From a virus, in IMG/VR virus record IMGVR_UViG_3300045988_052780: a stretch of 64,000 nucleotides of DNA; one strand, written 5' to 3'. This document shows, piece by piece, positions 16,301-63,505 of this stretch. The position numbers were made by a program, and so were the translations under genes. The stretch's first letter is position 1. The number at the start of each line of letters is the position of its first letter. The notes beneath the pieces are model-generated. The model searched no databases. It worked only from the letters and a program-made list of their open reading frames with translations, and was not told the DNA's origin.

Positions 16301-17078
16301 TAATTTAGGTCCTAATGATAGTATTAATGATGTACTTACACAAGGATACCAATTCTTCGTTAATAAGTATGATAAATATCATACTCCTAAAACTAAATTA
16401 TTTGATATAGCATTTACTAGAGGAAGTGGTAAACACGTATATATTGCATTTAATACATCTACTACTATCATAGATAAGCTATCAGCTAATAAAACTCTTA
16501 CTGACGATGACTTCATGAGAGTTGGAGATAGTATCTTTAGAATAGATAAAGATGGCAATAAATTATATGAAAGCGGATATTACGATGCTGAAGGTAATTA
16601 TCATGAGTTGGTAACATCCTATAATGCGATTGATGGTAATTCTGTTGAAGAAGTTTTAGTTGTTAGTACTCCCGATAATGTAATGGATATTTATAAAACT
16701 GACGATTTTGATTCCATTAAAATTAGTCAATATATTAAAGACAAGGCAACATTACAAGGAGTTATAGAACAGGGTAAGGACAGAAGTGACAGATTATTGA
16801 AAGGATTATATGACACATATACTAAAGCATTAGTTAAAGATGATTTTAGCGTATCTAAAATAGCTTATGAACTAGAGGCTTTAGAGAAATCTAGAAAGAT
16901 TACTGCTGCTAAGAAGAAGTTTGTATCATTCCAGAAATCTCTTGAATTTACTGTAGCTCGTATTCCGGCACAGACTATGCAATCATTTATGAAGATGAAA
17001 GCAGTAGCATTTAATGATTCTGATAAGAATGTGGTACATGTATCTCACTGGCAAACTTGGCTACAGGGAAGTGACTAT
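10308..17078 (+). CDS. giant protein, exon 1 (2257 codons); continues in exon 2 after a group I intron
   Basis: The ORF runs to TGA at 17079-81. The last exon nucleotides GACTAT (17073-78) can pair with intron guide sequence GTAGTC (17121-26), giving a U.G wobble at the splice site. No motifs recognised. Confidence 0.6.
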
Positions 17079-18152
17079 TGACCTAATTTTAACTGTTTAG
17101 TTAGGTGACATATTAATATTGTAGTCACTATAATAAATCTCGTGAATTGACGGGGAACTCCTTAGAGCTTAACCTACTAAACTAGAGTAGTAATACATCT
17201 AGTGGCGGCAATTAACTATTGTTGGTAAAGTAAAAAAGGTTAAGATTGGACAATCCGCAGCTAAGCATCCTAGATAAATATTTGGATAATAAGACTAGTT
17301 AATTGACAAAAGTTTTAATATCTTTGTGTTTATAAGGATGAAAGTTCATCGACTATCCCGTAAGGGAGTAGGAACTTTTATCTAATGTTTAACTCAAAAT
17401 ATTAGGTAAATGGCTAGAAGAATAACAAAGAAACTTAGTAAAGAACAAAAGAGCCTACTTATAGGCCTTCTTTTAGGAGATGGAACAATATCTAGTAATT
17501 ATGTATTCAAGCTAAGTCATTCTGAAGCTCAAAGAGAGTTTCTAGAATGGAAGATAGACTTATTAAACAAGTTTGGGTTTAAGAACAATGGTGTTAAGGA
17601 GTATATATCAACATGTGGATATAATAAAGGAAACAAAGTTTTATACTCTCAGATGTCACTTAACCCAACTATAAAAGCCTTAAGGAGAACAGTCTATACT
17701 CCTAAGAAACATATTACTAGAAGATTATTGAATTGGCTTACCCCTATCGGGTTAGCTATATGGTATATGGATGATGGTTGTATAAACGTAAATACTTCAA
17801 AACAGCGTAGCTCAATACAACATACAATCAAAATAGCTACGTGTGTTGATTTAGATACAGCTCAAGTAGTAATTGATTATTTCAAAGAAGTTTGGGATGT
17901 GCAATTTAGACCTTTTAAAGAAGGAAAGGGAACTTATTCTATTGCTAGTTCCACTGAATCTGATTGTGCAGCGTTCATACAAATTATACGTCCATATATA
18001 GAACAGGTTCCATCATTACTCTATAAAATTAGAGATAACTTTACTAAAGAAGAATTTATAGCACAGCAGAAAGCTGGTTCCGAAGTGCGAGACACTCTAG
18101 AGATAGAGTGATGATATAGTCAGTCTCATATTGAAAGGTATGAGGTTAAACG
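17079..18152 (+). mobile_element. group I self-splicing intron (T4 td/nrdB-like core) carrying a LAGLIDADG endonuclease ORF in the P8 region
   Basis: Conserved core elements are present. P is GAATTGACGGGGAACTCC (17144-61). Q is AATCCGCAGC (17252-61). R is GTTCATCGACTATCCC (17344-59). S is GATATAGTC (18113-21). A P9 hairpin CTCATA/TATGAG follows, then terminal G at 18152. P1/P10 pairing is consistent with splicing 17078|18153. Confidence 0.7.
17410..18111 (+). CDS. LAGLIDADG homing endonuclease (intron-encoded)
   Basis: Two LAGLIDADG motifs are present: LLIGLLLGDGTIS and LAIWYMDDGCINV. The ORF lies between the R and S core elements of the intron. Confidence 0.85.
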   Translation: MARRITKKLSKEQKSLLIGLLLGDGTISSNYVFKLSHSEAQREFLEWKIDLLNKFGFKNNGVKEYISTCGYNKGNKVLYSQMSLNPTIKALRRTVYTPKKHITRRLLNWLTPIGLAIWYMDDGCINVNTSKQRSSIQHTIKIATCVDLDTAQVVIDYFKEVWDVQFRPFKEGKGTYSIASSTESDCAAFIQIIRPYIEQVPSLLYKIRDNFTKEEFIAQQKAGSEVRDTLEIE

Positions 18153-21104
18153 GATATTGATAAAGCCTACGTAATGGGTTATGACTTTGATACTAATGGT
18201 AATTATATAGGATGGTCTCCATACTTCAATTTCAATTCTATAGAAGCTCTTAGAATGTCTGAAAGACTACCTACTCCTAATGGTAAACTATATGCATATA
18301 GTCATGCTCCTGGAGCTGTAGATATTACTAATTACGTGGAAATGCTTAATGAGGAGAATTTCTATAACCCAGAATCTCTACCAATCATAGCTGAGTTACT
18401 TACTGTAATTGATGATACTAACTTAGTAAGTTATACTGGGTCGGACACTAAGAATGCTGATTTTATTCTAAGCAGAATAAATAACCATTCTATGTACATG
18501 ACTGAAGAACGTGATGAGAACGGTAGAAGAGTAAAGAATGGTCGTCAGAAGATAAGAGCTATTAATACTTTGCCTGCATTTAGAAACTCTGTATCGGCTA
18601 GTATTAGTAACATTATTCAAGACCTAAAGAATATGACTCAGGCATATTCTCCAATTGAAATGGGAGATCCTCAAGCTGCTGCTGAGAATTCTACTTCTGG
18701 TAAGGAAGCTAACAAAATTACTCTTATGTCTCCTTCTGCTAAATGGGTAATGCAGATGCAGAATATGGATGGTAAACAGGTAATTGGTATTGCAGCTGTT
18801 GGTGAGAAAGTATTCTTTGCTAACTGTTATTATTTTAATGAAGGCATTAGAAGTGGAGATTCTAAGTGGATGAACAACATGTTCTTCTCTAATGTTTATA
18901 AAGGTATTCAGAGCAAGGTGTCAGAGGATGGCAAAATAATTACTGTAGATACCCTCAGAAACATAATGGCCAACATTAACTTTACTGATTTAGCTCCAGA
19001 GAAGAATTATTGGGAGAACCTAATTAGGACTGCTACTGAGCAACAATTAACTCAAGAAGATGTTTCTAGAGTTATTCAAGAGCAATTAGGAGTACAACCT
19101 GACCAATCATTGGTTATCTCAGCTTTACTATCTGCTGCAACCGATAATGCCAAGGAGTTGATTCTATCTAAAATTAATGCTGGTCCTAATCTAGCTGGTA
19201 TGTATTTACATATGATTATGTTAGGATTCAGTTTTAATGATATAGCAAAGAATCTAATGACTACACCTACAGTGCAGACGGTTAATGACTTGATGAAGGT
19301 TAACGTATTTGATGAATATCACGAAACAGCATCTGTTAACTCAGTAATTAGGTCATTAGAAGAAGGTCCTAATATTAGAAACTATTTAAATAATGACGGA
19401 CTGAAGGGATTATATGCTAGAGTGTCTGTTGATAATCCTGGAATGTTTGCCAAGAGAGGTGAGTGGATTCAAGAAATTAAAGATAGATTTGCTAATAATG
19501 GTAGCATCGAAGACATATTCCCTGCTAAGAACTTTAGAGAATTTAGATTCCTAGAGGAATATGAATACTTGTTGAAGATGAAGAGAAGGATAGATCCGGA
19601 CAAATTCACTGAATTTAAGAATATTAATTTTGATGCAAGAGAGACTGAACTTCTTGGTAGATTCTACGGGTTAAATCAAGGTATGCCAACTGATATTGCA
19701 GGTAAAATGGCAATGTTGAATACTTATGAATCAGCTATTACTAATAGGGAGCGTAAGTATCTAACTAGCAGTAATGGGTTTAATGTTGATGAACTAATTG
19801 TTAATGTATTGAAAGAGAAGCCATATTTAGAAGAAACTGCGGTCAGAAATATAGTTAAAGATGCGGTGTCTCAGAATATAGTAAATGGAGGTTTTAGTAT
19901 TAGAAAGTTCTTAGATCCAGTCAATAATGGCTACAGACAGACTACAATTGATTACTATAATATTATTAAGGGAACTTGGAACATATTTGACATGATTACT
20001 AAAATTCCTCATTTCAAAGCACTGTTTGATATTTATAATCTTACTGATACTTCTGACATAAATATAAGCACTAAGTTTAATCTGGTAAATTCCTACAGAG
20101 AAGCCCTTATTAAAGAGAATCCAGTTTACGGTAGAGCTGTTAAAAAGGAGCAATTAGCCGCATTAGCATCTCATACTGATAACGTTCTAATTAATAATTG
20201 GCTTACACGTAGAAACGTAGTATTTAGATTGGAAGAAGGGCAGGAATACATAGGATCCGACATGACTATACACTCAGCTGGTCCTGGTGGAGAAGTATTT
20301 AATTTGTCTACTAATGAGGGAATTGCTAACTTTAAAATGTGGATGGAAAGAGAGGTAATTCCTGCATTAAAGAACGGAGTTGTAGGTAATAAAAGAGTAA
20401 GATCCTTACTTATTAATAGCTTCATACAGGGATTAAGTAGAAACAGAAGATTAGATCCATTTACTAGATCTAATGTAACTTATATGAAGTTGCCAATTAA
20501 TATGTTAAGTACTGAAACAGATCCAGTATTTAGTAGATACCAAAGAGACTTTGCTGCTCTTAAGAAGATAGAACTTCAAGGAGTATCTTTAACAGATTGG
20601 TTCTTTTTGTATAATCTAGTAGTTAATAAGAATCAGTACGGTGCTGACAGATTAACTTCCCTATTTAATACAATAGATGGAGTTGATGTTAGTGATATGT
20701 TAACTGACTTTCATAATTATGTAGGTAACGCTGACTACTGGCTTGATGTTAACATGGACTCATTCTCACTGGAGGATGCCCTTATTAGGATGGCACCTAT
20801 AGTAAGTGAGAGTTCTAAAGGTAGAGCTAGGGATAAATACATTAGAATTAAAGACGATGATACAGGTAGATTATTTCTATATATGAGAAGCGGAGATGAC
20901 TACTATATGGTAGATGAAGTACCAAATATGGAAGATGAGGATTCATTAAGGTTACGTGACAATTACTTCGTAATAAATACTCCTAACCAGAGTAACAGAA
21001 TGAAGGAATTAGTAATTAACTTTTCCGAATCACTTAATACCTTAATAGGTAAGATCAAAAGTCTAATGAGACGTAATACTATACAAATGAGAATCAAGTG
21101 TTAA
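18153..21104 (+). CDS. giant protein, exon 2 (983 codons); spliced product about 3240 aa
   Basis: The frame is open from 18150. Exon 2 begins GATATT directly after G18152, which matches the P10 pairing with TATT upstream of the guide sequence. The predicted junction is ...QGSDY|DIDKAYVMGYDFD.... The ATG at 18174 in the ORF track is probably not a real start. Confidence 0.6.
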   Translation, partial: DIDKAYVMGYDFDTNGNYIGWSPYFNFNSIEALRMSERLPTPNGKLYAYSHAPGAVDITNYVEMLNEENFYNPESLPIIAELLTVIDDTNLVSYTGSDTKNADFILSRINNHSMYMTEERDENGRRVKNGRQKIRAINTLPAFRNSVSASISNIIQDLKNMTQAYSPIEMGDPQAAAENSTSGKEANKITLMSPSAKWVMQMQNMDGKQVIGIAAVGEKVFFANCYYFNEGIRSGDSKWMNNMFFSNVYKGIQSKVSEDGKIITVDTLRNIMANINFTDLAPEKNYWENLIRTATEQQLTQEDVSRVIQEQLGVQPDQSLVISALLSAATDNAKELILSKINAGPNLAGMYLHMIMLGFSFNDIAKNLMTTPTVQTVNDLMKVNVFDEYHETASVNSVIRSLEEGPNIRNYLNNDGLKGLYARVSVDNPGMFAKRGEWIQEIKDRFANNGSIEDIFPAKNFREFRFLEEYEYLLKMKRRIDPDKFTEFKNINFDARETELLGRFYGLNQGMPTDIAGKMAMLNTYESAITNRERKYLTSSNGFNVDELIVNVLKEKPYLEETAVRNIVKDAVSQNIVNGGFSIRKFLDPVNNGYRQTTIDYYNIIKGTWNIFDMITKIPHFKALFDIYNLTDTSDINISTKFNLVNSYREALIKENPVYGRAVKKEQLAALASHTDNVLINNWLTRRNVVFRLEEGQEYIGSDMTIHSAGPGGEVFNLSTNEGIANFKMWMEREVIPALKNGVVGNKRVRSLLINSFIQGLSRNRRLDPFTRSNVTYMKLPINMLSTETDPVFSRYQRDFAALKKIELQGVSLTDWFFLYNLVVNKNQYGADRLTSLFNTIDGVDVSDMLTDFHNYVGNADYWLDVNMDSFSLEDALIRMAPIVSESSKGRARDKYIRIKDDDTGRLFLYMRSGDDYYMVDEVPNMEDEDSLRLRDNYFVINTPNQSNRMKELVINFSESLNTLIGKIKSLMRRNTIQMRIKC

Positions 21105-54443: not shown

Positions 54444-55808
54444 TTAACTTAATATATAAGCATTAGTTTTGGTTCTTGATAAAGATACATATTGAAGCTG
54501 TCTAAGTTCATTAATATCTCTATCCAACTTTAGATTACCCATGTCTACGAACACATTGTTATAGGAACTCCCTTGACTTCTGTGTGCAGTTATGGCATAA
54601 CCATAGTCGAACGTCTGTGGCTTAATAACTCTATTATCAAATAACAGAGGAACTGGAGTAGCAAACGATTTTACCATATCGAAATATATACCCCATAAAT
54701 ACTTAGATTTAGTCCTATTACTCCACTTTTTAGCTTGTATTGCATCAAGCCTTACAGATTCTATCTTCTGAGCAAGTGTATGTAAATAGTCAGGATTTAT
54801 ATTATCTGGGTCTATTATGAATACGTTCATTAATCTCTTATCAACGCTATCATATAGGCCCAGCTCGAACCCCGAAAGTCTCATAAAATGAGGAATGTTT
54901 CTAGAGGTTCTGCGTATGTTAATAATAATATAGTCAGAAGAATTAAAGAACATGTCGCCATCGTATTCAAAGTTCTCACACCCAGTTAGAAACTCTGATT
55001 TATGATATGGCTCATTGTCTGTAAATAATAATCTTCTGACACAATCATTAAAACCTTTTACGCGCTTATTAGTATATGCTATAAGTTTAGTATGGTTTAC
55101 ATTATTATGTGTCATACCATACTTAATTTCTGGTAAGGCATCTAGCATAAACTCTTTAGCATTATTATAGCAAAAGAGAGAACCCTTCTCTCCGATTCGT
55201 GTTTCAAATCTAGCTATAGGATTCTCTCTTAATGTTAATAATATGGGTGCTAGGGCAGTGTCTTCATCTTGTCTGAATATCTTAGTAAGACGTATTACAT
55301 TCTCATGTTCGAACACCTTACTAAGACCTCCATTATTCACTGGAGCTATTTGGGCAATGTCCCCTATAAACAGAATCTTACACTGATAAAATTCACAATA
55401 GTCTACAAGTAGATCGTAAAGTTCATCACTAACCATAGAGGCTTCATCTATGATAATTAATCCCTTATTAGGAATGTTACCCATACCTTCAGAATAGAAC
55501 TTCAAATCCTTGTAGTCTAAGTTAAATATATCTAGCTTGGGAGATAATGCTAATAGTTTATGTAATGTAGTAGCTGTATAGCCTGTAGCCATCTCTAGGA
55601 CTGCTTTAGCTTTGTGAGTAGGAGCACACAACTTAAAGAATTCTGTTCCTTTGGTACTATCTAAATACTGTACGAACTCATTCATAACTGCTGTTTTACC
55701 TACTCCAGCATATCCAGTAAGAACTAATATTCTTTCCGGACTATCTAAGAACTTAATCATCTTATCAATAGCATACAACTGCTCATCTGACCAAGCTATC
55801 TTATTCAT
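54444..55808 (-). CDS. dda: Dda-like SF1B DNA helicase
   Basis: Four blocks align to T4 Dda. TGYAGVGKT aligns to NGPAGTGKT. FIGDIAQIAPV aligns to IGDNKQIRPV. TAHRSQGSSYNNVFV aligns to TFHKAQGMSVDRAFI. YVSLSRTKTNAYIL aligns to YVGVTRGRYDVFYV. Confidence 0.9.
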   Translation of the reverse strand: MNKIAWSDEQLYAIDKMIKFLDSPERILVLTGYAGVGKTAVMNEFVQYLDSTKGTEFFKLCAPTHKAKAVLEMATGYTATTLHKLLALSPKLDIFNLDYKDLKFYSEGMGNIPNKGLIIIDEASMVSDELYDLLVDYCEFYQCKILFIGDIAQIAPVNNGGLSKVFEHENVIRLTKIFRQDEDTALAPILLTLRENPIARFETRIGEKGSLFCYNNAKEFMLDALPEIKYGMTHNNVNHTKLIAYTNKRVKGFNDCVRRLLFTDNEPYHKSEFLTGCENFEYDGDMFFNSSDYIIINIRRTSRNIPHFMRLSGFELGLYDSVDKRLMNVFIIDPDNINPDYLHTLAQKIESVRLDAIQAKKWSNRTKSKYLWGIYFDMVKSFATPVPLLFDNRVIKPQTFDYGYAITAHRSQGSSYNNVFVDMGNLKLDRDINELRQLQYVSLSRTKTNAYILS

Positions 55809-55810
55809 AA

Positions 55811-56386
55811 CTATTTATCCCAAAATTTATAAGTTATGTTTGTTAACTTGTACTCTCCATCCTCAACTATAACCTTATAAAGCCTTTGGTTGGTGTTTGG
55901 ATTATTAAGTGGTCCACATTCTTCAATGTAAGGGCCGAGCTTAACGTAATTAAAGTTCTTCAGATCAATTTCCTCTGCTAATGTAGCTCTACCACTATAC
56001 CACCCAATCTTTATGTTAAGTGGTACTGTCTCCTGCCATTGCATCTCAGTTTCAGCCGGAATTGTTACCTTAGGAAACTTTACCTCTTTATGAATAGTAA
56101 AGGAATCTACTATCTTAGTAGTAGTTAATGCCCTTACTAAACCAGCATAGTGATTAATGAGTTTAGGGTCATTATCGCCACCCATAAAACAGATAGCAGT
56201 AATACCTTTATTCTCATTAATGAGTTTCTCTATTCTAGTAATTGTTAGAGGTTCTCCAATATCCTCTGCCAAGTAAGAGCTATGACAGCCTGGACAATGG
56301 CAGGGACAATTGGATATATTAATGGCAAGAGTGGTTTCATCAGGAATTTCCCTAAATACTATGTCATATCCTACATATTTAAGCAT
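55811..56386 (-). CDS. nrdG: anaerobic ribonucleotide reductase activating protein (radical SAM)
   Basis: YVGYDIVF...NISNCPCHCPGCHSSY aligns to the E. coli NrdG N-terminus (YYPVDIVNGPG...GCVHECPGCYN). The start was moved to the ATG at 56384-86; the ORF track begins earlier. This ATG overlaps the nrdD stop as ATGCTTAA. Confidence 0.8.
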   Translation of the reverse strand: MLKYVGYDIVFREIPDETTLAINISNCPCHCPGCHSSYLAEDIGEPLTITRIEKLINENKGITAICFMGGDNDPKLINHYAGLVRALTTTKIVDSFTIHKEVKFPKVTIPAETEMQWQETVPLNIKIGWYSGRATLAEEIDLKNFNYVKLGPYIEECGPLNNPNTNQRLYKVIVEDGEYKLTNITYKFWDK

Positions 56387-56651
56387 GTGCGTAGAATCTT
56401 CTGCTAGCTTCTTCTTGTCTTGCTTGACTGAAGTTACTAACACGTTTTAAATAACCGATAACTCTAGTAGCATAATCAATGTTCTTACTACCACACTTAG
56501 GACATTCTTTGAGATATCTTTTATCAATATGTCCACAATCATTACAAATAGTATTTGGAATATTAAATGTGAAATAGTTAGTACCATTGACAGCTGCAAC
56601 CTTTAATAGGTTACGATACTGTTCTTTGCTAAGATGTTCATCTAGATTCAT
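56379..56651 (-). CDS. nrdD: anaerobic ribonucleotide reductase NrdD, exon 3 (C-terminal zinc-ribbon and glycyl-radical segment)
   Basis: The zinc ribbon is CNDCGH ... CPKCGS. The glycyl radical motif ATRVIGYL matches RVCGY. The true exon start lies a few codons upstream of the Met shown in the ORF track. Confidence 0.8.
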   Translation of the reverse strand: MNLDEHLSKEQYRNLLKVAAVNGTNYFTFNIPNTICNDCGHIDKRYLKECPKCGSKNIDYATRVIGYLKRVSNFSQARQEEASRRFYAHA

Positions 56652-56659
56652 GTGGAGGG

Positions 56660-57720
56660 CGCTACCCGTGTTTATCTAATGTTTCCATTAGCACTGACTA
56701 TATCTTAACGGAAGTACTTCCGCAATATCCATTTCAAGCAGCGTACCAATAGCTGCCTTACTCCTCCGATCCGAGGATAGTCGATACAGGATTATAATTA
56801 TCAATGTTTATCTCCTGACCATTAAGTAGCCAGGCAGATTTAACTTTACTGTAGATTGGAAGATGTTTATATGAATTAGCAATTAAACCTCTAAAGCTAT
56901 CTTTAGATTTACTTCTGCTACCATACTTCTCATATGTTTCTGTTAAGGTATGATTAGTATAATACTTACGTATCTCTAAGACTTCTTCGTCAGAGTATAT
57001 TGCATTACCATTCAAACTTCCTGGATTACTCTTTTGAGAACTATGATGTACTTTATTAGATTCAGTATAAACTTCCGGCATAACAGATTGCCAAGTAATT
57101 CCTTCCCAAATCTTCTGAAATGCTGAGTAGGAGATTCTATCCTTAAACATCTCCCAACATTCCTTACATCTCAAGTCTCCATAAGAGTAAATCTCTCGAA
57201 TTTGAATTACATCTTCCACTTTAAGTTTAGCTCTAGGGTTTCCGTCTAACTGGTTAGATTCACCTCCCCCAGTAATATTATATCCTTTATCAGGATTCCT
57301 GGAATCAAAGGTCTTTATATAGTACCTCTCTAATTCCCCAAGCTTCTTAAAGTCGTCAGTATTATCTATCTCTTCTATAGTAAAGTTCTCAAGACCGTAT
57401 TTACGCATAGACCTATATAAGTGTCTATCACACACTCTACTGTCTCTTATGTGACCTCTCCATCTTGCTTCTAGTGTAACTGTAGTTAAACCTATATACA
57501 CCTTGCCGTTAATACTGTTAGTAATTTTATAGATGATCATTATATTAATAATTTCTACAAATTTACTAATTTAAATGGAGATGTGCAACTCATACATCAT
57601 AATTAATTTCCCACGGGATTACCATACATCTAGTCTCACGACTCAAGCTTCAGGCTTCCCCGTTAGCATAGTTAATTACTATACCCGTCTGGTTAAACGC
57701 AAAGATATAACAGGCGATTG
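56660..57720 (-). mobile_element. group I intron (approximate bounds) in nrdD carrying a GIY-YIG endonuclease
   Basis: On the minus strand an R-like element GTGAGACTAGATG (57627-42) lies upstream of the endonuclease ORF. An S element AAGATATAGTC and a P9 hairpin CTAATG/CATTAG lie downstream (56675-56705). Splice sites are not resolved by eye. Confidence 0.5.
56758..57540 (-). CDS. GIY-YIG homing endonuclease (I-TevI/Seg-like)
   Basis: IYKITNSINGKVYIGLT ... RWRGH ... NITGGGE matches the GIY-YIG catalytic domain. A C-terminal basic DNA-binding region follows. Confidence 0.85.
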   Translation of the reverse strand: MIIYKITNSINGKVYIGLTTVTLEARWRGHIRDSRVCDRHLYRSMRKYGLENFTIEEIDNTDDFKKLGELERYYIKTFDSRNPDKGYNITGGGESNQLDGNPRAKLKVEDVIQIREIYSYGDLRCKECWEMFKDRISYSAFQKIWEGITWQSVMPEVYTESNKVHHSSQKSNPGSLNGNAIYSDEEVLEIRKYYTNHTLTETYEKYGSRSKSKDSFRGLIANSYKHLPIYSKVKSAWLLNGQEINIDNYNPVSTILGSEE

Positions 57721-58488
57721 TTCACCATCAAGATACTTGATATAATCTTTACCATGTAGTTTAAATTTATCAAGTATAGTCAAGGAAGTATCTTCTACAG
57801 CATAGAAGTAACTATTATAGCAATCTCTTGGTACAAAGTAACCTGCCTTCCTGTCCCACATAGCATGTTTAACTCCCAGGTTCTCCGCTGGGACAAACTC
57901 ACAGTTAAACATCAACTCCTTAGTTCTAGCTTTACGATTTTCATCGCTAATAGTCTTAAGGATAGATTGCATAAATTCTCTGTAAGTAGGATTGTCATTA
58001 ACTGGAATTCCTAAGAACTCAGCAGCTTCGATAACTCCATTAACACCTACAGTTAAATACTGTTTCTTCATATGAATGAATCCAGCAGAATAGACAGTTA
58101 GTAAACCATCATTTAAATAGTCTTTGAGTAATTCATTATATGCAGTTTGATATTTATGAACTTTCTGAACGTTTTCACGTAAATACTCAATCATATCGTA
58201 TCCGTTATTAACTGCATCTTGAACTAATCTATTAATATTTAAAGTCATTACAGATTTGCTACCAGTAGCAATACCACCAGCTCCAAGAGAATAACTAAAT
58301 TGATTATCAGTTACTTCATTGCGAAGTCTACAACAACTTGACAGACTATCTGCTGAATCAGACATATAAGTAAAGAATGAGTGTCCCTTACTATACATCT
58401 CTGCTGTAAAGTCTGCCCATTCTTTATCTACTACATCCTCTCCATCAGTAAGAAGTGCTACAGTTTCGACCATTCTGTTACACCTCAC
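57679..58488 (-). CDS. nrdD: anaerobic ribonucleotide reductase NrdD, exon 2 (middle segment)
   Basis: The segment contains SSCCRLRN and lies collinear with exons 1 and 3. Its first codon in the ORF track is GTG, so it is not an initiator. The 3' tail probably reads through into the intron. Confidence 0.75.
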   Translation of the reverse strand: MRCNRMVETVALLTDGEDVVDKEWADFTAEMYSKGHSFFTYMSDSADSLSSCCRLRNEVTDNQFSYSLGAGGIATGSKSVMTLNINRLVQDAVNNGYDMIEYLRENVQKVHKYQTAYNELLKDYLNDGLLTVYSAGFIHMKKQYLTVGVNGVIEAAEFLGIPVNDNPTYREFMQSILKTISDENRKARTKELMFNCEFVPAENLGVKHAMWDRKAGYFVPRDCYNSYFYAVEDTSLTILDKFKLHGKDYIKYLDGEQSPVISLRLTRRV

Positions 58489-59550
58489 CCTCGGTAGGTG
58501 AGTGATTTATTAAGTATTCGTATTTCTTGTTCTCACTACTAACTATCTTGCCATAGATTTCTATTTCGTGTAATAGTCTATTCTTGATAGCCTCTTCTTC
58601 CGTGTCATACCATTCGATTAAGGATTCTCCATCCTTCTTTATATAGCATCTCCAGCATTTACCATCTCGTCTATTAGAGTGATAACTAACACCTACTACT
58701 TTACCGTAGTGTCTGTTAACTACATTTATTGCTTGAGATACTACTCTAAGATTCTCCATTCTATTGTCTAGTCTAATTCCATTAATATGGTCCACTACAG
58801 TCTTAGCATCGTAACCCTCTGTTTCAGTCAGAATCTTATGAATTAGCCGCGTCTTACCATCAGTTTTAGTTACTGCGTAACCTTCACTATTAATATAAAT
58901 CTTAAACTGTTGTAAGAACTCTTTCTTATCTAAATCGAATATTACTTCACCAGTGATTTCACCATGTACTCCTCTACATACACAGACATTATCTCTCCAC
59001 TCATTAGCATCCTTCTGGGTGAATTGAGATATCTCTCCATGTCTATACATTTGTAAATAGTGCTTTCTACAATAATACTGTCCATCTCCCTTAAACTTAC
59101 TTACTCTACCAGTGCCATTACCGACACTAGCTCCACATATACAGCAAATTCTTTCGTTAGTCTCCATATTTATAAAGTTGTTACTTGTTTCACTTAATGA
59201 GACAAAGATACAACTTATTCCCAATAGAAACTAACTTTAATGGACATACTTAATAAACGGGAGAATACTTCAATTCTCCTCTATATGTTACCATATAGTT
59301 CCGACTATCGCATACCTTAATACATTATATTCACACATAACGTATTAAAGTCCTCTATATTTAGTCTGTCAGGCTGCACACTTAACGTTGCTTGCCCCCT
59401 GTTGTCCTAATATTAGGAGTTCCAAGTCAATTAATAGAGGTTTTAATTCCCCATCGAAATTCCAAGGGAATGTAAGAATACACTTAGTGCGTTCATTATT
59501 AAACCAAGTCATAAACTTCTTCTGTAACCAGTTCAAAGAATCCCATATGG
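58450..59550 (-). mobile_element. group I intron (approximate bounds) in nrdD carrying an HNH-AP2 endonuclease
   Basis: On the minus strand a P-like GGAATTTCGATGGGGAA lies near 59445-69. A Q-like GTGTGCAGCC and an R GACAGACTAAAT lie at 59356-82. An S GCGATAGTCGG lies at 59301-11. The endonuclease ORF is in the 3' (P9) region. The exon 1 ORF tail overlaps these core elements, so it reads through into the intron. Confidence 0.5.
58478..59167 (-). CDS. HNH homing endonuclease with AP2-like DNA-binding domain
   Basis: HNH motif is DHINGIRLDNRMENLRVVSQAIN. The AP2-like segment is GVSYHSNRRDGKCWRCYIKKDGE. The N-terminal CCICG...CRKHY resembles a zinc finger. The ORF track start is a TTG; the first ATG is at 59165-67. 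Confidence 0.85.
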   Translation of the reverse strand: METNERICCICGASVGNGTGRVSKFKGDGQYYCRKHYLQMYRHGEISQFTQKDANEWRDNVCVCRGVHGEITGEVIFDLDKKEFLQQFKIYINSEGYAVTKTDGKTRLIHKILTETEGYDAKTVVDHINGIRLDNRMENLRVVSQAINVVNRHYGKVVGVSYHSNRRDGKCWRCYIKKDGESLIEWYDTEEEAIKNRLLHEIEIYGKIVSSENKKYEYLINHSPTEGEV

Positions 59551-60496
59551 GCTTAGTTCCATCTGGGAATACAAACTCACCAAATAAACCTTCAAAGTAA
59601 TTCTTATCAAAATAACTGATATTCCAGAATACTGATTGGAAGTTACGAGCAGCTGCTGGTTGATTGATTGAATATACAATCTGTTGGAACTTCTGTTCAA
59701 TAGTCTTATCAATATTTCTATGTTTATCAACCATCTCTTCTGGACGTTTCCAATAATCATCACCCCATTCTTTACGAGCGAAGTAATCGAAATACATTAG
59801 GAACTCACCAGTAGCTACTGCTCCAGCGAATTGTGAGCTGATAGCAAATACCAGATTAACAAACATACCGCAGAAGGAGTCCAGATTCTTAGGCTTGGCA
59901 GACAAACCTCCAATTGGCTGTAGCCCTTCAAGTAGGAACGGATACATAGTGATAGCCACGCAGTAGGGCATAATTGATGTTTCATCATGCTTGTAAAGTT
60001 CATGAGATTCCAGTTGTCTAATATACTCCTTAGCTAAATCTTCACCATATAACTGCCTAATTTTATCTGTAAGGATTGCTCTATTAACTTTAATTACATC
60101 ACCCTTAAACAACTCTCCATTTAAAGTTACTATATTCTTCTCAGTAACATTGGCATTAGCATCATATTTACTACCTGTAGCAGCATTAGATGCTTTGGCA
60201 TAATCTTTAATAAACTGCTTCTTCCCAGCTAATGCTCTGAGTTCAGCTTGTTTATGTCGATACAAAATGAATGCTTTAGCGACATCATAGTAATCACAAG
60301 CCATCAAAGCCTTTTCAATTTGATCTTGAAGCTCTTCTACTGATACTATGTTGTTAATATACAATTCATCTTTAATATCATCCAAAATATCGGAATCAAT
60401 TGGTTCGTTAACAGCATTGAACGCCTTAGTAATAGCCGCGTCAATCTTATTAATATCGAAAGGTTCTACTCTCTTATTTCTTTTAATTACTAACAT
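59369..60496 (-). CDS. nrdD: anaerobic ribonucleotide reductase NrdD, exon 1 (ATP-cone and N-terminal half; 3' end includes intron read-through)
   Basis: The N-terminal ATP cone is MLVIKRNKRVEPFDINKI. The gene is collinear with exons 2 and 3 and with nrdG downstream. Confidence 0.8.
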   Translation of the reverse strand: MLVIKRNKRVEPFDINKIDAAITKAFNAVNEPIDSDILDDIKDELYINNIVSVEELQDQIEKALMACDYYDVAKAFILYRHKQAELRALAGKKQFIKDYAKASNAATGSKYDANANVTEKNIVTLNGELFKGDVIKVNRAILTDKIRQLYGEDLAKEYIRQLESHELYKHDETSIMPYCVAITMYPFLLEGLQPIGGLSAKPKNLDSFCGMFVNLVFAISSQFAGAVATGEFLMYFDYFARKEWGDDYWKRPEEMVDKHRNIDKTIEQKFQQIVYSINQPAAARNFQSVFWNISYFDKNYFEGLFGEFVFPDGTKPIWDSLNWLQKKFMTWFNNERTKCILTFPWNFDGELKPLLIDLELLILGQQGASNVKCAA

Positions 60497-60501
60497 TCAA
60501 T

Positions 60502-61281
60502 TTAGAAGTTTAATATGTTTCTTAGTAATAGAGTCTTCTCTGCTCTATTCATCAAATCTTTGCCCTTGTCATTACTAATTAACTGAGTAAATGCATTATA
60601 CACAGTAAACATATCCACCTCATTACCCTCTCCTATATAATAGCTAGAATCAGGGTCTTCAAACATAGAACCATAAGCCTTAACAACAAGGTCTGTTCCT
60701 ATCTTTACGTCTCCATACCCACCATTATAGGTCATAGATATAGCGTTTCTAACCCATCTACCTAGATTAGAGTCTATATTACTTGGAGTTCCTTCCCATG
60801 TAGTATTATGTAAGGTGTCCAACATCAATTTAATATCACTGGTTTGTGATAAAAGGTGTTCAACAGCTTTATAATTGATGGGCTTCTCAGACTCTAAGTT
60901 CTGAACTTGCAAGAACTCTGGGTCAAAGACACATAAGTTTGTACATGCTCTATTAAGAGCGCCTCTATAAATCTTAGCTACTGGTTTACGGACATCTAAT
61001 CCATATACCATACCAATAACTTCATCGTGATTATCTATTCTGCAATTCTCTGGCATTACAGCTTGAATAAGTACACGATTATAAGTGATATCATCTGCAT
61101 TAACCTCTCCATCTGCTGTTCTAGTAACTTGCTTAGGAAGTTCTGCTTCCACTATAAAGTTACTAGTAAACTTATACATTCTTTCTAGAAAGGGTTCTAC
61201 ATAAGCAGCCGTAGGGAAGTAATTACGCTTCCCTATTCTGGTTGCTTTACCATTTAACAGTTGATCAATCGTCAGTTGCAT
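60502..61281 (-). CDS. hypothetical protein
   Basis: 259 aa with no motif. Confidence 0.4.
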   Translation of the reverse strand: MQLTIDQLLNGKATRIGKRNYFPTAAYVEPFLERMYKFTSNFIVEAELPKQVTRTADGEVNADDITYNRVLIQAVMPENCRIDNHDEVIGMVYGLDVRKPVAKIYRGALNRACTNLCVFDPEFLQVQNLESEKPINYKAVEHLLSQTSDIKLMLDTLHNTTWEGTPSNIDSNLGRWVRNAISMTYNGGYGDVKIGTDLVVKAYGSMFEDPDSSYYIGEGNEVDMFTVYNAFTQLISNDKGKDLMNRAEKTLLLRNILNF

Positions 61282-61934
61282 TATACACAGTACAATATCG
61301 GCTTTGGTAATTCTAGTAATCTAGCAGCATAATATACAGCTCTTAATGGATTCGCATTGTTGCCATCAAAAGGCATAGTATTATAATTAAAATAACCAAC
61401 GCCACATTTCTTAGCAATTGTATATAGTCTTACTAACAACTTAGTAGATTGCTTTTCTATTGGCTCGATATCCTTTAACAAAAGCTGATTTATCAAATAC
61501 TTTAGGGCTTCCGTGCAAGTAGCTCTGGTATCACCACCGCTAAATGTATGATTGTCTATCATAATTGCTCGCACAGTAACTCCACAAAATGCATCCTCAG
61601 CATACTTTACTTCACCACTCATCATTTCAATAGGAGTTCCCACCAATCCCTGTACAGGATGGACAGGTTTCTCTACATCTCTGTCATTAATGGTTATCTT
61701 ACTAGAATCTAGTTGCTTTGAGGCTTTAGAAATCATACTATCTTTAACAATAGTAGGAAAATCATCTATGTTAGTTTGGCCAGTTACTCTAAATCCAACA
61801 GCTGGCAAATTACTCATAAGATTATCCTCGGCTCGTTGAAAGTCTAGTTTACTTTGTTCTAACGCCTTAAAAGCATTTACATAGTCATCACAATTAGCTC
61901 TAAGAGCTATTACATCATCAATAGTTAAAGTCAT
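61281..61934 (-). CDS. hypothetical protein
   Basis: 217 aa with no motif. Confidence 0.4.
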   Translation of the reverse strand: MTLTIDDVIALRANCDDYVNAFKALEQSKLDFQRAEDNLMSNLPAVGFRVTGQTNIDDFPTIVKDSMISKASKQLDSSKITINDRDVEKPVHPVQGLVGTPIEMMSGEVKYAEDAFCGVTVRAIMIDNHTFSGGDTRATCTEALKYLINQLLLKDIEPIEKQSTKLLVRLYTIAKKCGVGYFNYNTMPFDGNNANPLRAVYYAARLLELPKPILYCV

Positions 61935-61942
61935 TGTTTACA

Positions 61943-63505
61943 TTATTGTAAGATAATTCGTCCATCTAACGTGTTCTTACCATCTACAATACTATAATCA
62001 CAGGATGCAAGAGTATTACCGAAGTTCTTGTGTATCCACTCAGAACTTCCAAATAATGAGCCTACAGACTTATAAGTAAATCTTCTACCATAGGTAGTAG
62101 CGGACTGATGCAAGTCTCCTTTTACAAAGACTACATTACCGGAGATTCCCCTATTATCTAGATACTCATTAATAAAATTCTCAGTCTTTACATCTAAGGT
62201 TAGCGGTAAATTCTTGAACATATCCTTGTTATCTTTACCATGACACATTACATAAGTAACGTCACCAAGTTTGAACTCTCCGATAAATTTATCAAATACT
62301 TGACACTTAATATCGAACTGTTCAAGTATAGCAGCCAATGCTATATTAGCAGCATATCCAAAATCACCGTCATGGTTGGATTCCCCAACGCAGTAATAAT
62401 ATAAATTGGAATGCTTAATCTCTTCCTGTATAGACTTAATAAAACTAGTCATTAGTTTTATATAAGTATGCAGTTGTTCCTTATTGCTCATATTTTGAGC
62501 TAGGTCATGTCCACCTCTAGTAGTCTGGCCATTATATCCATCTAGAGAGTCTCCAAGATTACAGATAACAATATTCTCAAATCCTCCACCTATATGATAG
62601 GCTTCTGTATATACTCTTTTAAGAATCATATCAAATCTTCTCTTCATCTCTTCCTCATTATAAGGATTTTGATAAATAGATTGTGGAGATACAGCTGCTC
62701 CAGTATGAATATCAGATAGCCAAATGATTAAGTCTTTACCATTGGTTATCATAGGTGCTTTGCCCCAATCATACAAATTATTAATGTCTAAACCTTCTAG
62801 AATATGTTTACCATCTTCAATCTTAGACTTTAATTCTGCATTCTCTAATGCATATTTCTTTAATAAGGATTCATTCTGTTTTATCCTTTGAGTTTCTATG
62901 CCTCTAAGAAAGTCATTCTCCTTCTCTCTTAGTTGCATAACTTGAAGCTGTTCAGGAGTATTCTCCTCTATGATATGAGGAGCAAATGGAGCTGAAGCCT
63001 TAGTAATATTAAACACTCTCAGAATCTTCTTGAAATCTTCCAATGAATATTCTGGGAAGCTACGGCTAACTTCTCTTTGCGTGATAGAAGAGCCATAATA
63101 TGAATACAATCTATAAATCATATTCATTTCATCACGTGTAAGTCTTCCGGCTAAAGGAGCTTTATCACGCAAAGGCACAGTAAATTCATAGGCAATAATC
63201 CTACCTTCTGTGTCTCTTATATACTGAATGGTTCCAGTACTAGTCTTTTCAGAGGTATTCTTGGCTTTGGATTTAGTAGTTCCAACATAACCTCGTTCTT
63301 TAATCTGTTTAAACAAATCCATGACAGTAGAATACTGTTCATTAGATACTTTGTTAGCCTCATAGTCAAACTCCAGTTGCTTACGCTTATTGCAGAAATA
63401 ATTCTGAGGAAGACCTGTCTTCTCAGCATAAGCATTCATACTGACGTTATCTTTAATTACGTTATGTAAGTGACTGATCAATTTGACTAGAGTTTCGTTT
63501 CTCAT
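61943..63505 (-). CDS. two-domain protein with a C-terminal calcineurin-like metallophosphoesterase domain (SbcD/Mre11-like?)
   Basis: The C-terminal half carries WLSDIHTG, NLGDSLDGY, GESNHDGDF, CHGKDN and GDLHQ. The N-terminal 250 aa are unassigned. Confidence 0.55.
   Translation of the reverse strand: MRNETLVKLISHLHNVIKDNVSMNAYAEKTGLPQNYFCNKRKQLEFDYEANKVSNEQYSTVMDLFKQIKERGYVGTTKSKAKNTSEKTSTGTIQYIRDTEGRIIAYEFTVPLRDKAPLAGRLTRDEMNMIYRLYSYYGSSITQREVSRSFPEYSLEDFKKILRVFNITKASAPFAPHIIEENTPEQLQVMQLREKENDFLRGIETQRIKQNESLLKKYALENAELKSKIEDGKHILEGLDINNLYDWGKAPMITNGKDLIIWLSDIHTGAAVSPQSIYQNPYNEEEMKRRFDMILKRVYTEAYHIGGGFENIVICNLGDSLDGYNGQTTRGGHDLAQNMSNKEQLHTYIKLMTSFIKSIQEEIKHSNLYYYCVGESNHDGDFGYAANIALAAILEQFDIKCQVFDKFIGEFKLGDVTYVMCHGKDNKDMFKNLPLTLDVKTENFINEYLDNRGISGNVVFVKGDLHQSATTYGRRFTYKSVGSLFGSSEWIHKNFGNTLASCDYSIVDGKNTLDGRIILQ

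Follow-up and report, generated by a model that had tools for sequence, protein, structure and literature searches.

Two group I introns with different homing endonuclease genes interrupt nrdD in a crAss-like phage

In the crAss-like gut phage represented by IMG/VR record IMGVR_UViG_3300045988_052780, the nrdD gene lies in three pieces, with an endonuclease ORF in each of the two spacers. Are these pieces the exons of one gene, separately translated fragments, or the remains of a gene in decay? We addressed this question in a stretch of 64,000 nt of this record (hereafter the window; Table 1). On sequence comparison, it is very probable that nrdD is expressed as one pre-mRNA, that both spacers are self-splicing group I introns with a homing endonuclease gene apiece, and that their removal would yield a 688-aa NrdD.

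Table 1. Features of the nrdD-nrdG locus (window coordinates)
Feature	Position	Strand	Description and basis
nrdG (activase)	55811..56386	-	Directly downstream of nrdD; weak Pfam Fer4_12 match
nrdD exon 3	56379..56666	-	95 codons + stop; zinc ribbon and RVIGY glycyl-radical motif
Intron 2, group I	56667..57723	-	1057 nt; T4 td/sunY-like (IA2-like); excision restores ORF; covariation
Intron 2 ribozyme, 3′ half	56667..56801	-	Comparison with T4 td, nrdB and sunY; covariation
Intron 2 ORF	56758..57540	-	260 aa; GIY-YIG homing endonuclease; Pfam GIY-YIG E 5.6e-9 (above cut-off)
Intron 2 ribozyme, 5′ half	57599..57723	-	Comparison and covariation (alignment A1)
nrdD exon 2	57724..58470	-	249 codons, including SSCCRL; gapless MT835470.1 alignment
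Intron 1, group I	58471..59464	-	994 nt; exact excision restores ORF; Rfam; covariation; MFE
Intron 1 ORF	58478..59167	-	229 aa; HNH homing endonuclease; Pfam HNH_3 E 2.5e-9 (above cut-off)
Intron 1 catalytic core	59260..59440	-	P3, P4, P5, P6, P7, P8, P9, P9.1; Rfam alignment, covariation
Intron 1 internal guide sequence	59446..59459	-	Read from sequence
nrdD exon 1	59465..60496	-	344 codons; ATP-cone and N-terminal half; Pfam ATP-cone, NRDD

The nrdD reading frame and its junctions

Three collinear minus-strand ORFs had been proposed to encode NrdD, and the exons indeed carry the domains and motifs that the proposal had placed in each of them. Because MT835470.1 encodes an uninterrupted 688-aa NrdD, the junctions could be fixed to the base. 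Cutting out 994 and 1057 nt leaves a 688-aa protein, within the roughly 650-700 aa anticipated for the concatenated exons, which aligns over its full length and without gaps with that of MT835470.1 (639 of 688 residues identical, 92.9%). Both junctions fall between codons (phase 0), after aa 344 and aa 593. Exon 1 ends in ...ACATTCCCT, its last T being the U in the U.G pair of P1, and exon 2 ends in ...CTTGATGGT; the predicted junctions read ACATTCCCT^GTCGAAACT (...TTCCCT^GTCGAA...) and CTTGATGGT^GGTAGCGCC (...GATGGT^GGTAGC...). Three of the four boundary intervals of the original prediction contain the true site; the remaining one, 59480-59600, misses the 5′ end of intron 1 (59465/59464) by 15 nt.

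The spliced protein matches Pfam NRDD in one stretch (positions 6-560 of 562, E 5e-105), in addition to the ATP-cone, with SSCCRL at aa 388 and RVIGY at aa 661. The features expected of a class III ribonucleotide reductase (RNR) are all found: a full-length NRDD domain, the thiyl cysteine region, the zinc ribbon, the glycyl-radical motif and an adjacent activase. NrdD segments that failed to assemble would have spoken for a pseudogene; instead, together they form a class III RNR of full length that is under constraint. It is true that nrdD is interrupted twice, and that the relatives L076 and L080 carry N-terminally truncated HNH ORFs, as might be expected of a pseudogene in decay into which dead mobile elements had inserted. 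Against this, the exon frame is intact, with zero frameshifts or stops across 2064 nt and a gapless alignment, and the dN/dS of the joined gene relative to MT835470.1 is 0.043 (dS ~1.2), the three exons being alike. SSCCRL, the zinc ribbon and RVIGY are all present, and nrdG, whose start codon overlaps the nrdD stop within ATGCTTAA, is itself intact and translationally coupled. With a dN/dS of 0.04 we do not regard nrdD as a pseudogene, a reading that we find scarcely credible.

Two ribozymes of different layout

That group I introns occupy both spacers had also been predicted, and Rfam comparison, the P1 and P10 pairings and covariation bear this out for each of them. In both introns the exon-terminal U faces a G of the guide sequence, the intron ends in G, and P1 covaries within the family. 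Intron 1 begins with TGGAAT and ends with CAGAATG. Its P1 joins GGGGAAT (59452-59446) to the exon-1 end ATTCCCT by 7 bp, with the U.G at the splice site, and its P10 joins TTTCGAT (59459-59453) to the exon-2 start GTCGAAA, likewise by 7 bp; each of the six intron 1 family members that we tested has a 7-bp P1 with U.G, and this helix covaries with the exon sequence. The core is compact, lacking P2 and P7.1/P7.2, and displays the conserved P3-P8 and P4-P6 domains with the P3/P7 pseudoknot. It aligns with Rfam Intron_gpI (RF00028) over positions 1-253 of 253 at 59484-59281 (44.9 bits, E 1.8e-10), a score below the gathering cut-off of 50 bits and obtained only with the ORF left out; at the gathering threshold, Rfam gave no match across the whole window or the 5-kb region. 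In alignment A2, 99% of the cells are paired, against 37-47% in slid controls, and double changes affect 9 of 28 pairs. Furthermore, an unconstrained MFE fold recovers P1, P3-P6, P8, P9 and P9.1 (z = -4.9).

Intron 2 runs from GAACAATCGCC to ATAAACACG. Its 5′ half comprises P1, the P10 guide AATC, the P3 5′ strand ATATCT and two hairpins, X and Y, followed by P4, P5/P5b and the 5′ strands of P6 and P6a; its 3′ half comprises P6a′, P6′, the P7 5′ strand, P7.1, P7.2, P3′, P8, P7′, P9 (GAAA loop) and a tail. P1 pairs GGT of the exon plus GA with TCGCC and thus has only three exon base pairs; P10 is weak, with about 3 bp (ATC with GGT), relatives having 3-4 bp of other sequences. Rfam Intron_gpI matches the 3′ part at model positions 188-253 (E 0.019), and a search of the 5′ half gave no match. 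In alignment A1, 99.4% of the cells are paired, against 38-44% in slid controls, with double changes in 26 of 59 pairs. Compensatory changes fall in P7.1 (2 of 4 pairs) and P7.2 (6 of 7), P3 has two covarying pairs, and hairpins X and Y covary as well. The group I cores glimpsed in the original prediction are thus real, but its R-like motif for intron 2, GAGACTAGA, was misassigned. As a candidate P7 it was rejected, since it lies in the P5b hairpin; the true P7 5′ strand is GACTAT (56782-56777), within the 3′ end of the GIY-YIG ORF.

As in td, nrdB and sunY, and as expected of subgroup IA2, P7.1 and then P7.2 lie between the P7 5′ strand and P3′. The canonical P1-(P2)-P3-J3/4-P4 order is not found, the P3 5′ strand following directly upon the guide sequence, and because hairpins X and Y, absent from canonical models, sit between this strand and P4 we call the intron IA2-like rather than typical IA2.

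Could the gene nevertheless be truly split, the insertions being unspliced endonuclease cassettes and the NrdD fragments being translated separately before they assemble? The fragments of the mobE-split NrdA of Aeromonas phage Aeh1 are reportedly assembled in this way. In the window, an in-frame ATG stands directly before exon 2 (CAGAATG|GTC), and an ORF scan shows that each fragment has start codons close to its beginning. However, both insertions hold complete group I cores kept by compensatory substitutions, and their P1 and P10 pairings specify exactly those junctions that restore the ORF. The ATG before exon 2 is moreover taken as incidental because introns of the same ribozyme family at another site of related alleles (site B, see below) end in AGG, and at the junction with exon 3 there is no start codon, the first ATG of this exon lying five codons downstream. 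We therefore hold a truly split nrdD to be very improbable.

If, as we think, both insertions are self-splicing introns, nrdD would be transcribed as a single pre-mRNA that holds them both. Each would fold as a ribozyme and remove itself by two-step guanosine-initiated transesterification, and the joined mRNA would be translated into the 688-aa class III RNR, with NrdG encoded immediately downstream.

The T4 introns provide the closest comparison. T4 nrdD (sunY, I-TevII) is the same host gene and likewise has a group I intron with a homing endonuclease, but a single one, located after codon 179 in phase 1 (window aa 274), whereas those of the window follow aa 344 and 593 in phase 0. Intron 1 shares the sunY layout, in which the core comes first, the ORF lies downstream of P9/P9.1 and the 3′ splice site is about 800 nt from the core; unlike sunY, it encodes an HNH rather than a GIY-YIG enzyme and has no P7.1/P7.2. 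Intron 2 shares with sunY the GIY-YIG family and the sequence and order of P7, P7.1, P7.2, P3′, P8 and P9, and from P7 to P9 it aligns helix by helix with both td and sunY. With td (I-TevI) it has in common P7.1/P7.2, the P4-P6 sequence block ACGGGGAA...AATCCCGTG, the GCCTG guide sequence and a GIY-YIG ORF located in the loop of the P6 extension. However, td resides in another host gene, with a P2 hairpin before P3 and a J3/4 of 3-4 nt, whereas intron 2 lacks a P2 ahead of P3, carries two hairpins between the P3 5′ strand and P4, and has an ORF whose 3′ end overlaps the core.

Endonucleases and intron mobility

The original prediction assigned an HNH-AP2 endonuclease to intron 1 and a GIY-YIG endonuclease to intron 2, and both catalytic families are confirmed. 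The intron 1 ORF, downstream of P9.1 with its stop codon 7 nt before the 3′ splice site, matches the HNH endonucleases of PHROG 99 (E 8e-27), and its residues D126, H127, N129, N135, N139 and N148 (DH-N-N motif) are invariant in alignment A3. The AP2 part was not detected in the window copy: Pfam AP2 gave no match even at E up to 5, and BLASTP against a plant AP2 sequence (an approximate query) was not significant. Of 13 aligned homologues, however, four match Pfam AP2 (PF00847; best E 1.8e-10), at a place that corresponds to window residues ~159-208, and the ORF thus probably carries a C-terminal AP2-like DNA-binding domain, as judged by its homologues. The intron 2 ORF matches the homing endonucleases of PHROG 7168 (E 1e-32), with an N-terminal catalytic domain whose GIY-YIG motif residues are readable. 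It occupies the P6a loop, its last ~15 codons overlapping P6a′, P6′, J6/7, the P7 5′ strand and P7.1. The LAGLIDADG ORF reported upstream is equally real (17410-18111; Pfam LAGLIDADG_2, E 7.6e-26).

During co-infection, the HNH (probably HNH-AP2) or the GIY-YIG endonuclease would cut an intron-less nrdD near the insertion site, and repair off the intron-bearing copy would transfer the intron and part of the exon sequence on its flanks. The splicing of introns 1 and 2, the activity of these endonuclease copies and their cleavage positions are what we infer from the sequences. A survey of alleles in 79 related IMG/VR loci, the window and MT835470.1 is consistent with this scheme. Forty-five of them are intron-free; in the others, introns of four types occupy three or four sites (A, A′, B and C), with most combinations represented. 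Intron-plus and intron-minus nrdD alleles occur in near-identical backbones. Locus L034, with the site C intron only, and locus L004, which is intron-less, show 55 differences over 2067 nt; 46 of these lie in CDS nt 1561-1800, and this 240-nt tract stops ~20 nt past site C. The same tract differs between the window and L069, which is without intron C. A divergent tract of ~220 nt immediately upstream of site C is found solely in intron-bearing alleles. Between the window and L073, intron 1 shows 8 nt differences, and the exons are only ~84% identical. Presence/absence polymorphism at a fixed site and co-conversion of the flanking exon, as expected of mobile introns, are both found, and the tracts in these related contigs point to recent homing.

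It is conceivable that the introns splice, but that one or both endonuclease copies are inactive and the introns are now immobile passengers, a situation known from T4 nrdB, whose intron has a defective I-TevIII. The C-terminal domain of the window HNH protein has diverged to the point where Pfam AP2 no longer recognises it, close relatives carry truncated HNH ORFs, and the T4 annotation records such decay. However, both ORFs are full length, the HNH residues are invariant in the family alignment and the GIY-YIG motif can be read. Intron copies that are nearly the same although their backbones have diverged, together with fresh co-conversion tracts, speak for activity in recent times. We regard immobile passengers as unlikely.

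Going further, we tentatively suggest, as a possibility that we would not yet favour, that nrdD in this crAss-like lineage is a currently active homing arena of the human gut and that intron 2 is an undescribed structural variant of the td type. Four introns may segregate almost independently at positions 344, 344 plus 2 nt, 538 and 593. They may represent at least two ribozyme families, among which the ribozyme of the fourth intron is not counted, and HNH-AP2, NUMOD4-HNH and GIY-YIG endonucleases; two unrelated introns may compete for positions 2 nt apart. In the intron 2 variant, P2-type peripheral hairpins may have been shifted from a position ahead of P3 into the interval that separates it from P4; a gyrase/topoisomerase-like gene and other phage genes would carry this variant too.

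Precedents and significance

The doubly interrupted nrdD had been put forward as notable. This was overstated: multi-intron phage RNR genes have already been described, and the window nrdD is a fresh example of a known phenomenon. According to PMC3984707, which cites Landthaler et al. 2002, the nrdE gene of Staphylococcus phage Twort has two group I introns. As presented there, it is also a phage RNR large-subunit gene with three exons and two self-splicing group I introns, but of class I rather than class III and in another phage group and host. Among 104 genomes of Jug (jumbo gut) phages of Bacteroides/Phocaeicola, 95 have a fragmented nrdD; group I introns and endonuclease genes divide it into as many as four pieces, and metatranscriptome reads confirmed splicing (PMC12880540). 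These are jumbo phages of 360-402 kb, whereas the window phage is crAss-like. For crAss-like phages, the virus order to which the window phage belongs, passages of Yutin et al. 2021 (PMC7886860) describe core genes that contain group I introns and their endonuclease ORFs; one of these is a LAGLIDADG intron located in the transcription gene block, a feature that the window shares. The paper stresses the Delta and Zeta groups and names MCP, PolB, primase and TerL as host genes; nrdD is not named as an intron host in these passages. The nearest named relatives of the window phage are Steigviridae (PolA 40-47% identity), and in the named crAss-like phages that we found (cr116_1, IAS virus, cr111_1 and cr85_1) nrdD is in a single uninterrupted piece. 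The GenBank phages Lak-C1 and SRB7757 have a three-piece nrdD that is unannotated.

Unless the introns are recognised, nrdD in the window, Lak-C1, SRB7757 and MT835492 is liable to be miscalled as three fragments or a pseudogene, and the exact junctions correct its annotation for the window. The known workings of group I introns and homing endonucleases are left unchanged. Among the related contigs, from an abundant and mostly uncultured gut phage group, near-isogenic alleles with and without introns form a natural series in which co-conversion tracts are visible. This series could serve to follow the gain and loss cycle of homing endonucleases and the competition of introns for one site.

The interrupted nrdD gene and its reading frames

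Our analysis confirms the original observation and supports its reading, an nrdD gene split into three exons by two group I introns with homing endonuclease genes of different families; exon assembly, covariation and Pfam matches bear on this. The encoded NrdD is complete and constrained. From the sequence we infer that both introns splice and that their endonucleases are active. An ORF scan of 55000-62000 gave three collinear minus-strand NrdD-like ORFs with two endonuclease-like ORFs in between. When the region was compared by megablast with GenBank phages, a single relative emerged, MT835470.1 (labelled "Bacteriophage sp.", unverified, human faeces), which covers only 51% of the query, within 2.2 kb. 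Its NrdD (688 aa) is uninterrupted, and aligning the window's NrdD fragments to this protein fixed the junctions to the base.

Coordinates of the features discussed (window positions, codons of the spliced nrdD or GenBank records)
Feature	Position	Strand	Basis or remark
Large ORF	10308-17081
Probable group I intron	17082-18173	+
LAGLIDADG_2 ORF	17410-18111	+	Pfam E 7.6e-26
Large ORF	18174-21104
nrdD exon 1	60496-59465	-	alignment to MT835470.1 NrdD
Intron 1	59464-58471 (994 nt)	-	alignment to MT835470.1 NrdD
Intron 1 ORF, HNH, 229 aa	59167-58478	-	Pfam HNH_3 E 2.5e-9; PHROG 99
nrdD exon 2	58470-57724	-	alignment to MT835470.1 NrdD
Intron 2	57723-56667 (1057 nt)	-	alignment to MT835470.1 NrdD
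Intron 2 ORF, GIY-YIG, 260 aa	57540-56758	-	Pfam GIY-YIG E 5.6e-9; homing-endonuclease PHROGs down to E 1e-32
nrdD exon 3	56666-56379	-	alignment to MT835470.1 NrdD
nrdG	56386-55811	-	directly downstream of nrdD
Insertion site A	after codon 344		window intron 1 type, 994-1006 nt
Insertion site A'	2 nt downstream of A		unrelated 856-nt intron, NUMOD4-HNH ORF
Insertion site B	after codon 538		ribozyme family of intron 1
Insertion site C	after codon 593		window intron 2 type
Split nrdD (Lak-C1)	MK250029.1 420685-425035		unannotated, two or three pieces
Split nrdD	PV062637.1 / OR395405.1 80139-83848		unannotated, two or three pieces
Split nrdD	MT835492.1 38271-41450		unannotated, two or three pieces

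The joined coding sequence yields 688 aa, of which 639/688 are identical to the MT835470.1 protein, without gaps, and both introns are inserted between codons. The predicted junctions are ACATTCCCT^GTCGAAACTG (exons 1 and 2) and CTTGATGGT^GGTAGCGCCC (exons 2 and 3). At the latter, a boundary shifted by 1 nt would leave the product unchanged, and we retained the only choice that gives an exon-final U and an intron-final G. As anticipated, the segments assemble into a full-length class III reductase: the spliced protein matches positions 6-560 of 562 of Pfam NRDD in a single stretch (E 5e-105), in addition to an ATP-cone. The alternative foreseen at the outset, a pseudogenised nrdD, is ruled out. 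Indeed, besides the gapless alignment, the comparison with MT835470.1 (dS ~1.2) gives a dN/dS of 0.043, alike across the three exons, so strong purifying selection has acted on the interrupted gene. Inteins are ruled out as well, the insertions being out of frame with stop codons inside.

The nrdG ATG overlaps the nrdD stop codon (ATGCTTAA, 56379-56386, minus strand), implying that translation of the activase and the reductase would be coupled. The final three bases of intron 1 (58471-58473, minus strand) read ATG in frame with exon 2, so translation of exon 2 without splicing is conceivable in principle. This ATG is probably incidental, since the introns of the same ribozyme family found at site B of nrdD end in AGG.

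The intron 1 ORF had been described as an HNH-AP2 endonuclease. The HNH part stands, with motif residues invariant in an alignment with 12 homologues. AP2 was undetected by Pfam in the window copy even at E values up to 5, and a BLASTP comparison of the C-terminus with an approximate plant AP2 domain sequence was not significant. PF00847 is matched, at best E 1.8e-10, by 4 of the 13 aligned family members, over a region aligned to residues ~159-208, and HNH-AP2 is therefore a reasonable reading by homology. In two related IMG/VR loci, L076 and L080, the HNH ORF at site A is shortened to 190 aa (internal Met start) in otherwise near-identical introns, which suggests endonuclease decay in some copies. 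The intron 2 ORF matches the GIY-YIG family, and a third family, LAGLIDADG, is also present in the window, both as predicted.

The LAGLIDADG_2 ORF lies between two large collinear ORFs and is flanked by weak Rfam Intron_gpI matches (17144-17375, E 0.005; 17925-18143, 28.5 bits, E 6e-5). The interval between the large ORFs is probably a third group I intron, and the ORFs on either side look like parts of a single split gene belonging to the crAss transcription block. The window also encodes giant ORFs of 2927 aa and 2257 aa, and its PolA is 40-47% identical to those of the crAss-like phages cr111_1 (Crassvirales, Steigviridae), IAS virus and crAss001.

The two ribozymes

Rfam gave no match in the whole window at the gathering threshold, and no group I match in 56000-61000 in E-value mode; matches appeared only in ORF-free sub-stretches, as the ORF insertions defeat the model. 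In an ORF-free search of 59150-59500, RF00028 (Intron_gpI) was matched end to end (model 1-253 of 253) at 59484-59281, with a score of 44.9 bits (E 1.8e-10), below the gathering cut-off of 50. The P1 of intron 1 has 7 bp, formed by the exon end ATTCCCT and GGGGAAT (intron nt 13-19), with a U.G wobble at the splice site. P10 pairs TTTCGAT (nt 6-12) with GTCGAAA, the initial seven bases of exon 2, and the terminal intron base is G. The core (nt 25-205) comprises P3, P4, P5, P6, P7, P8, P9 and P9.1 and is followed by the HNH ORF (nt 298-987), whose stop codon lies 7 nt 5' of the 3' splice site; the T4 sunY/nrdD intron has this same succession of core, ORF and distant 3' splice site. Furthermore, an unconstrained minimum free energy fold of 59473-59255 recovers P1, P3-P6, P8, P9 and P9.1, with a z-score of -4.9 against 200 shuffles.

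By blastn against the phage collection, intron 1 retrieved only short patches of Staphylococcus, Bacillus and Lak phage introns. When IMG/VR was scanned for the pattern CCTGACAGACTAAAT, divergent ribozymes of this family turned up in another gene (L180, L192, L195, L205), as did variants within nrdD. In a seven-sequence alignment, standard pairs occupy 99% of cells over 28 pairs, 9 of which are changed on both sides; slid controls are 37-47% paired. P1, P9 and P9.1 were misregistered by MAFFT and stand outside these counts. A register-aware script showed P1 to be 7 bp with its U.G in every member, covarying with the exon sequence, while P9 and P9.1, read by eye because of the misregistration, display compensatory changes such as CTATATG/CATATAG versus CTGTATG/CATACAG.

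For intron 2, the 3' 90 nt gave a weak match to the 3' end of RF00028 (positions 188-253, E 0.019) and the 5' half no Rfam match, and the ORF-deleted intron retrieved nothing by blastn from the phage collection. We modelled intron 2 on the T4 td, nrdB and sunY introns (NC_000866), to which it corresponds helix by helix from P7 on: P7 (GACTAT), P7.1 (CCTC...GAGG), P7.2 (AGGCAGC...GCTGCTT), GAAA and then P3' (GGATAT), P8 (CGGAA...TTCCG), J8/7 with P7' (AAGATATAGTC) and P9 (CTAATG-GAAA-CATTAG). The P4-P6 block, ACGGGGAA...AATCCCGTG, is almost identical to that of T4 td. Again as in td, the P6a loop holds the ORF, the final codons of which overlap P6a', P6', J6/7, the P7 5' strand and P7.1. P1 consists of three exon pairs (GGT/GCC, U.G included) and two intron pairs (GA/TC), and P10 of about 3 bp. 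No longer exon-only P1 was found; three exon and 2-3 intron pairs are what covariation supports. The R-like motif GAGACTAGA, initially read as the R core element of intron 2, was rejected as P7 because of its place between P4 and P4', where it belongs to a covarying P5b hairpin.

A AATCCCGTGGGAAAT scan found diverse relatives of intron 2, at the identical site in more distant NrdDs (L154, L168), in a gyrase/topoisomerase-like gene (L167, L108) and in another gene (L097). Over nine aligned ORF-deleted introns, 99.4% of cells are standard-paired across 59 pairs, with both sides changed in 26 of them, and slid controls are 38-44% paired. None of 500 shuffles equalled the observed values, whether for percent paired, for pairs or cells with changes on both sides, or for the covariation score. 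Apart from P4, P6 and P7, which are invariant, all helices show compensatory changes, P3 and the intron part of P1 included.

Our main by-products are two, and the first is the non-canonical position of two hairpins in this family. In the window (57666-57708, minus strand) and in L097, L154, L167, L168 and L108, the guide sequence leads directly into the P3 5' strand, and two covarying hairpins, X and Y, stand between that strand and P4. Y was scored in the formal count; X, misregistered by MAFFT, was kept out of it and read by eye. In T4 td and nrdB, in contrast, P2 precedes P3 and J3/4 has 3-5 nt. An alternative P3' partner near P4, which would have restored the canonical order, was sought and none fitted. 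We accordingly describe intron 2 as IA2-like, not as a typical member of IA2. To our knowledge, this order has not been described for a group I subgroup.

Segregating introns and conversion tracts

The second by-product is the segregation of four introns in one gene, with co-conversion tracts visible. An IMG/VR scan with the spliced NrdD returned 79 loci, whose exons were mapped by tblastn. Counting these loci, the window and MT835470.1, 45 alleles have no intron, six each have an intron at A, B or C only, three (the window among them) combine A and C, and A' + C, A + B, A' + B and B + C are represented once each; no allele is occupied at all three sites. Ten further loci are incomplete at one site at least, or have a one-codon indel at a site.

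The A' intron occurs in L067 and L079 (locus nt 5035-5890, NUMOD4-HNH_3 ORF, exon ...TTCCCTGT ^ GGAAACT...). Since the L067 nrdD is near-isogenic with that of the window and carries an identical intron 2, two different introns alternate at almost one position. Site B (FVP^AENLG) is occupied in L039-L043, L045, L065, L076 and L079 by an intron of ~961 nt, with a TAATTGACTTGGAAC core, the P1 GTGCCT/GGGCAC and the end GTAACAGAAGG. SRB7757, an unrelated Nitratidesulfovibrio phage, has an interruption at this protein position too.

L034, with an intron at C only, differs from the intron-less L004 at 55 of 2067 nt, and 46 of these 55 mismatches fall in CDS nt 1561-1800, a stretch made up essentially of the 220 nt that precede site C (nt 1779), with almost none downstream. 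Likewise, 43 of the 74 mismatches between the window and L069, which lacks intron C, lie in CDS nt 1561-1800. This divergent tract of ~220 nt, abutting site C upstream (window ~57943-57724 + 56666-56646), is found only in intron-C alleles. Such a one-sided co-conversion footprint suggests cleavage upstream of site C by the GIY-YIG enzyme. The window and L067 nrdD genes differ at 28 of 2067 nt, clustered at site A, where L067 has the other intron, and their C introns show 0 differences in 1057 nt. Intron 1 of the window differs by 2 nt from that of L076 and by 8 nt from that of L073, though the L073 exons are only ~84% identical to the window's. Patterns of this kind are expected from transfer driven by an endonuclease and accompanied by co-conversion.

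Among loci L004-L082, the last exon base (position -1) before site A, B or C is T in all intron-bearing alleles (CCT^ or GGT^). In most intron-less alleles the codon is instead a synonymous CCA or GGA, with which P1 would lose its U.G pair.

Comparison with known split nrdD genes

The notability first attached to a doubly interrupted nrdD was overstated, since multi-intron nrdD is already published: 95 of 104 Jug phage genomes have the gene broken into pieces, as many as four, with group I splicing confirmed by metatranscriptome reads (PMC12880540). Two group I introns are also reported in Twort nrdE (Landthaler et al. 2002, as cited in PMC3984707). In PMC7886860, Delta and Zeta crAss-like phages are described as dense in group I introns and inteins, and their transcription gene block is depicted with a LAGLIDADG intron. 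The phenomenon is thus textbook, and what is new is the combination, the sites and the phage group.

In the named crAss-like phages found by tblastn (cr116_1, IAS virus, cr111_1 and cr85_1), nrdD is matched as a single uninterrupted piece. The same search of GenBank phages with the spliced NrdD uncovered unannotated multi-piece genes, with insertions near aa 290 and at SSCC^RL in Prevotella phage Lak-C1, at SSCC^RL and site B in SRB7757, and at SSCC^RL in MT835492. Several insertions hit this catalytic motif exactly, at a site unused in the window's lineage. Across phages, nrdD is thus targeted repeatedly, at no fewer than seven insertion sites. The T4 nrdD intron follows codon 179 (phase 1). 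Its position is equivalent to window aa 274 and distinct from sites A, B and C, whose T4 equivalents are aa 257, 444 and 502.
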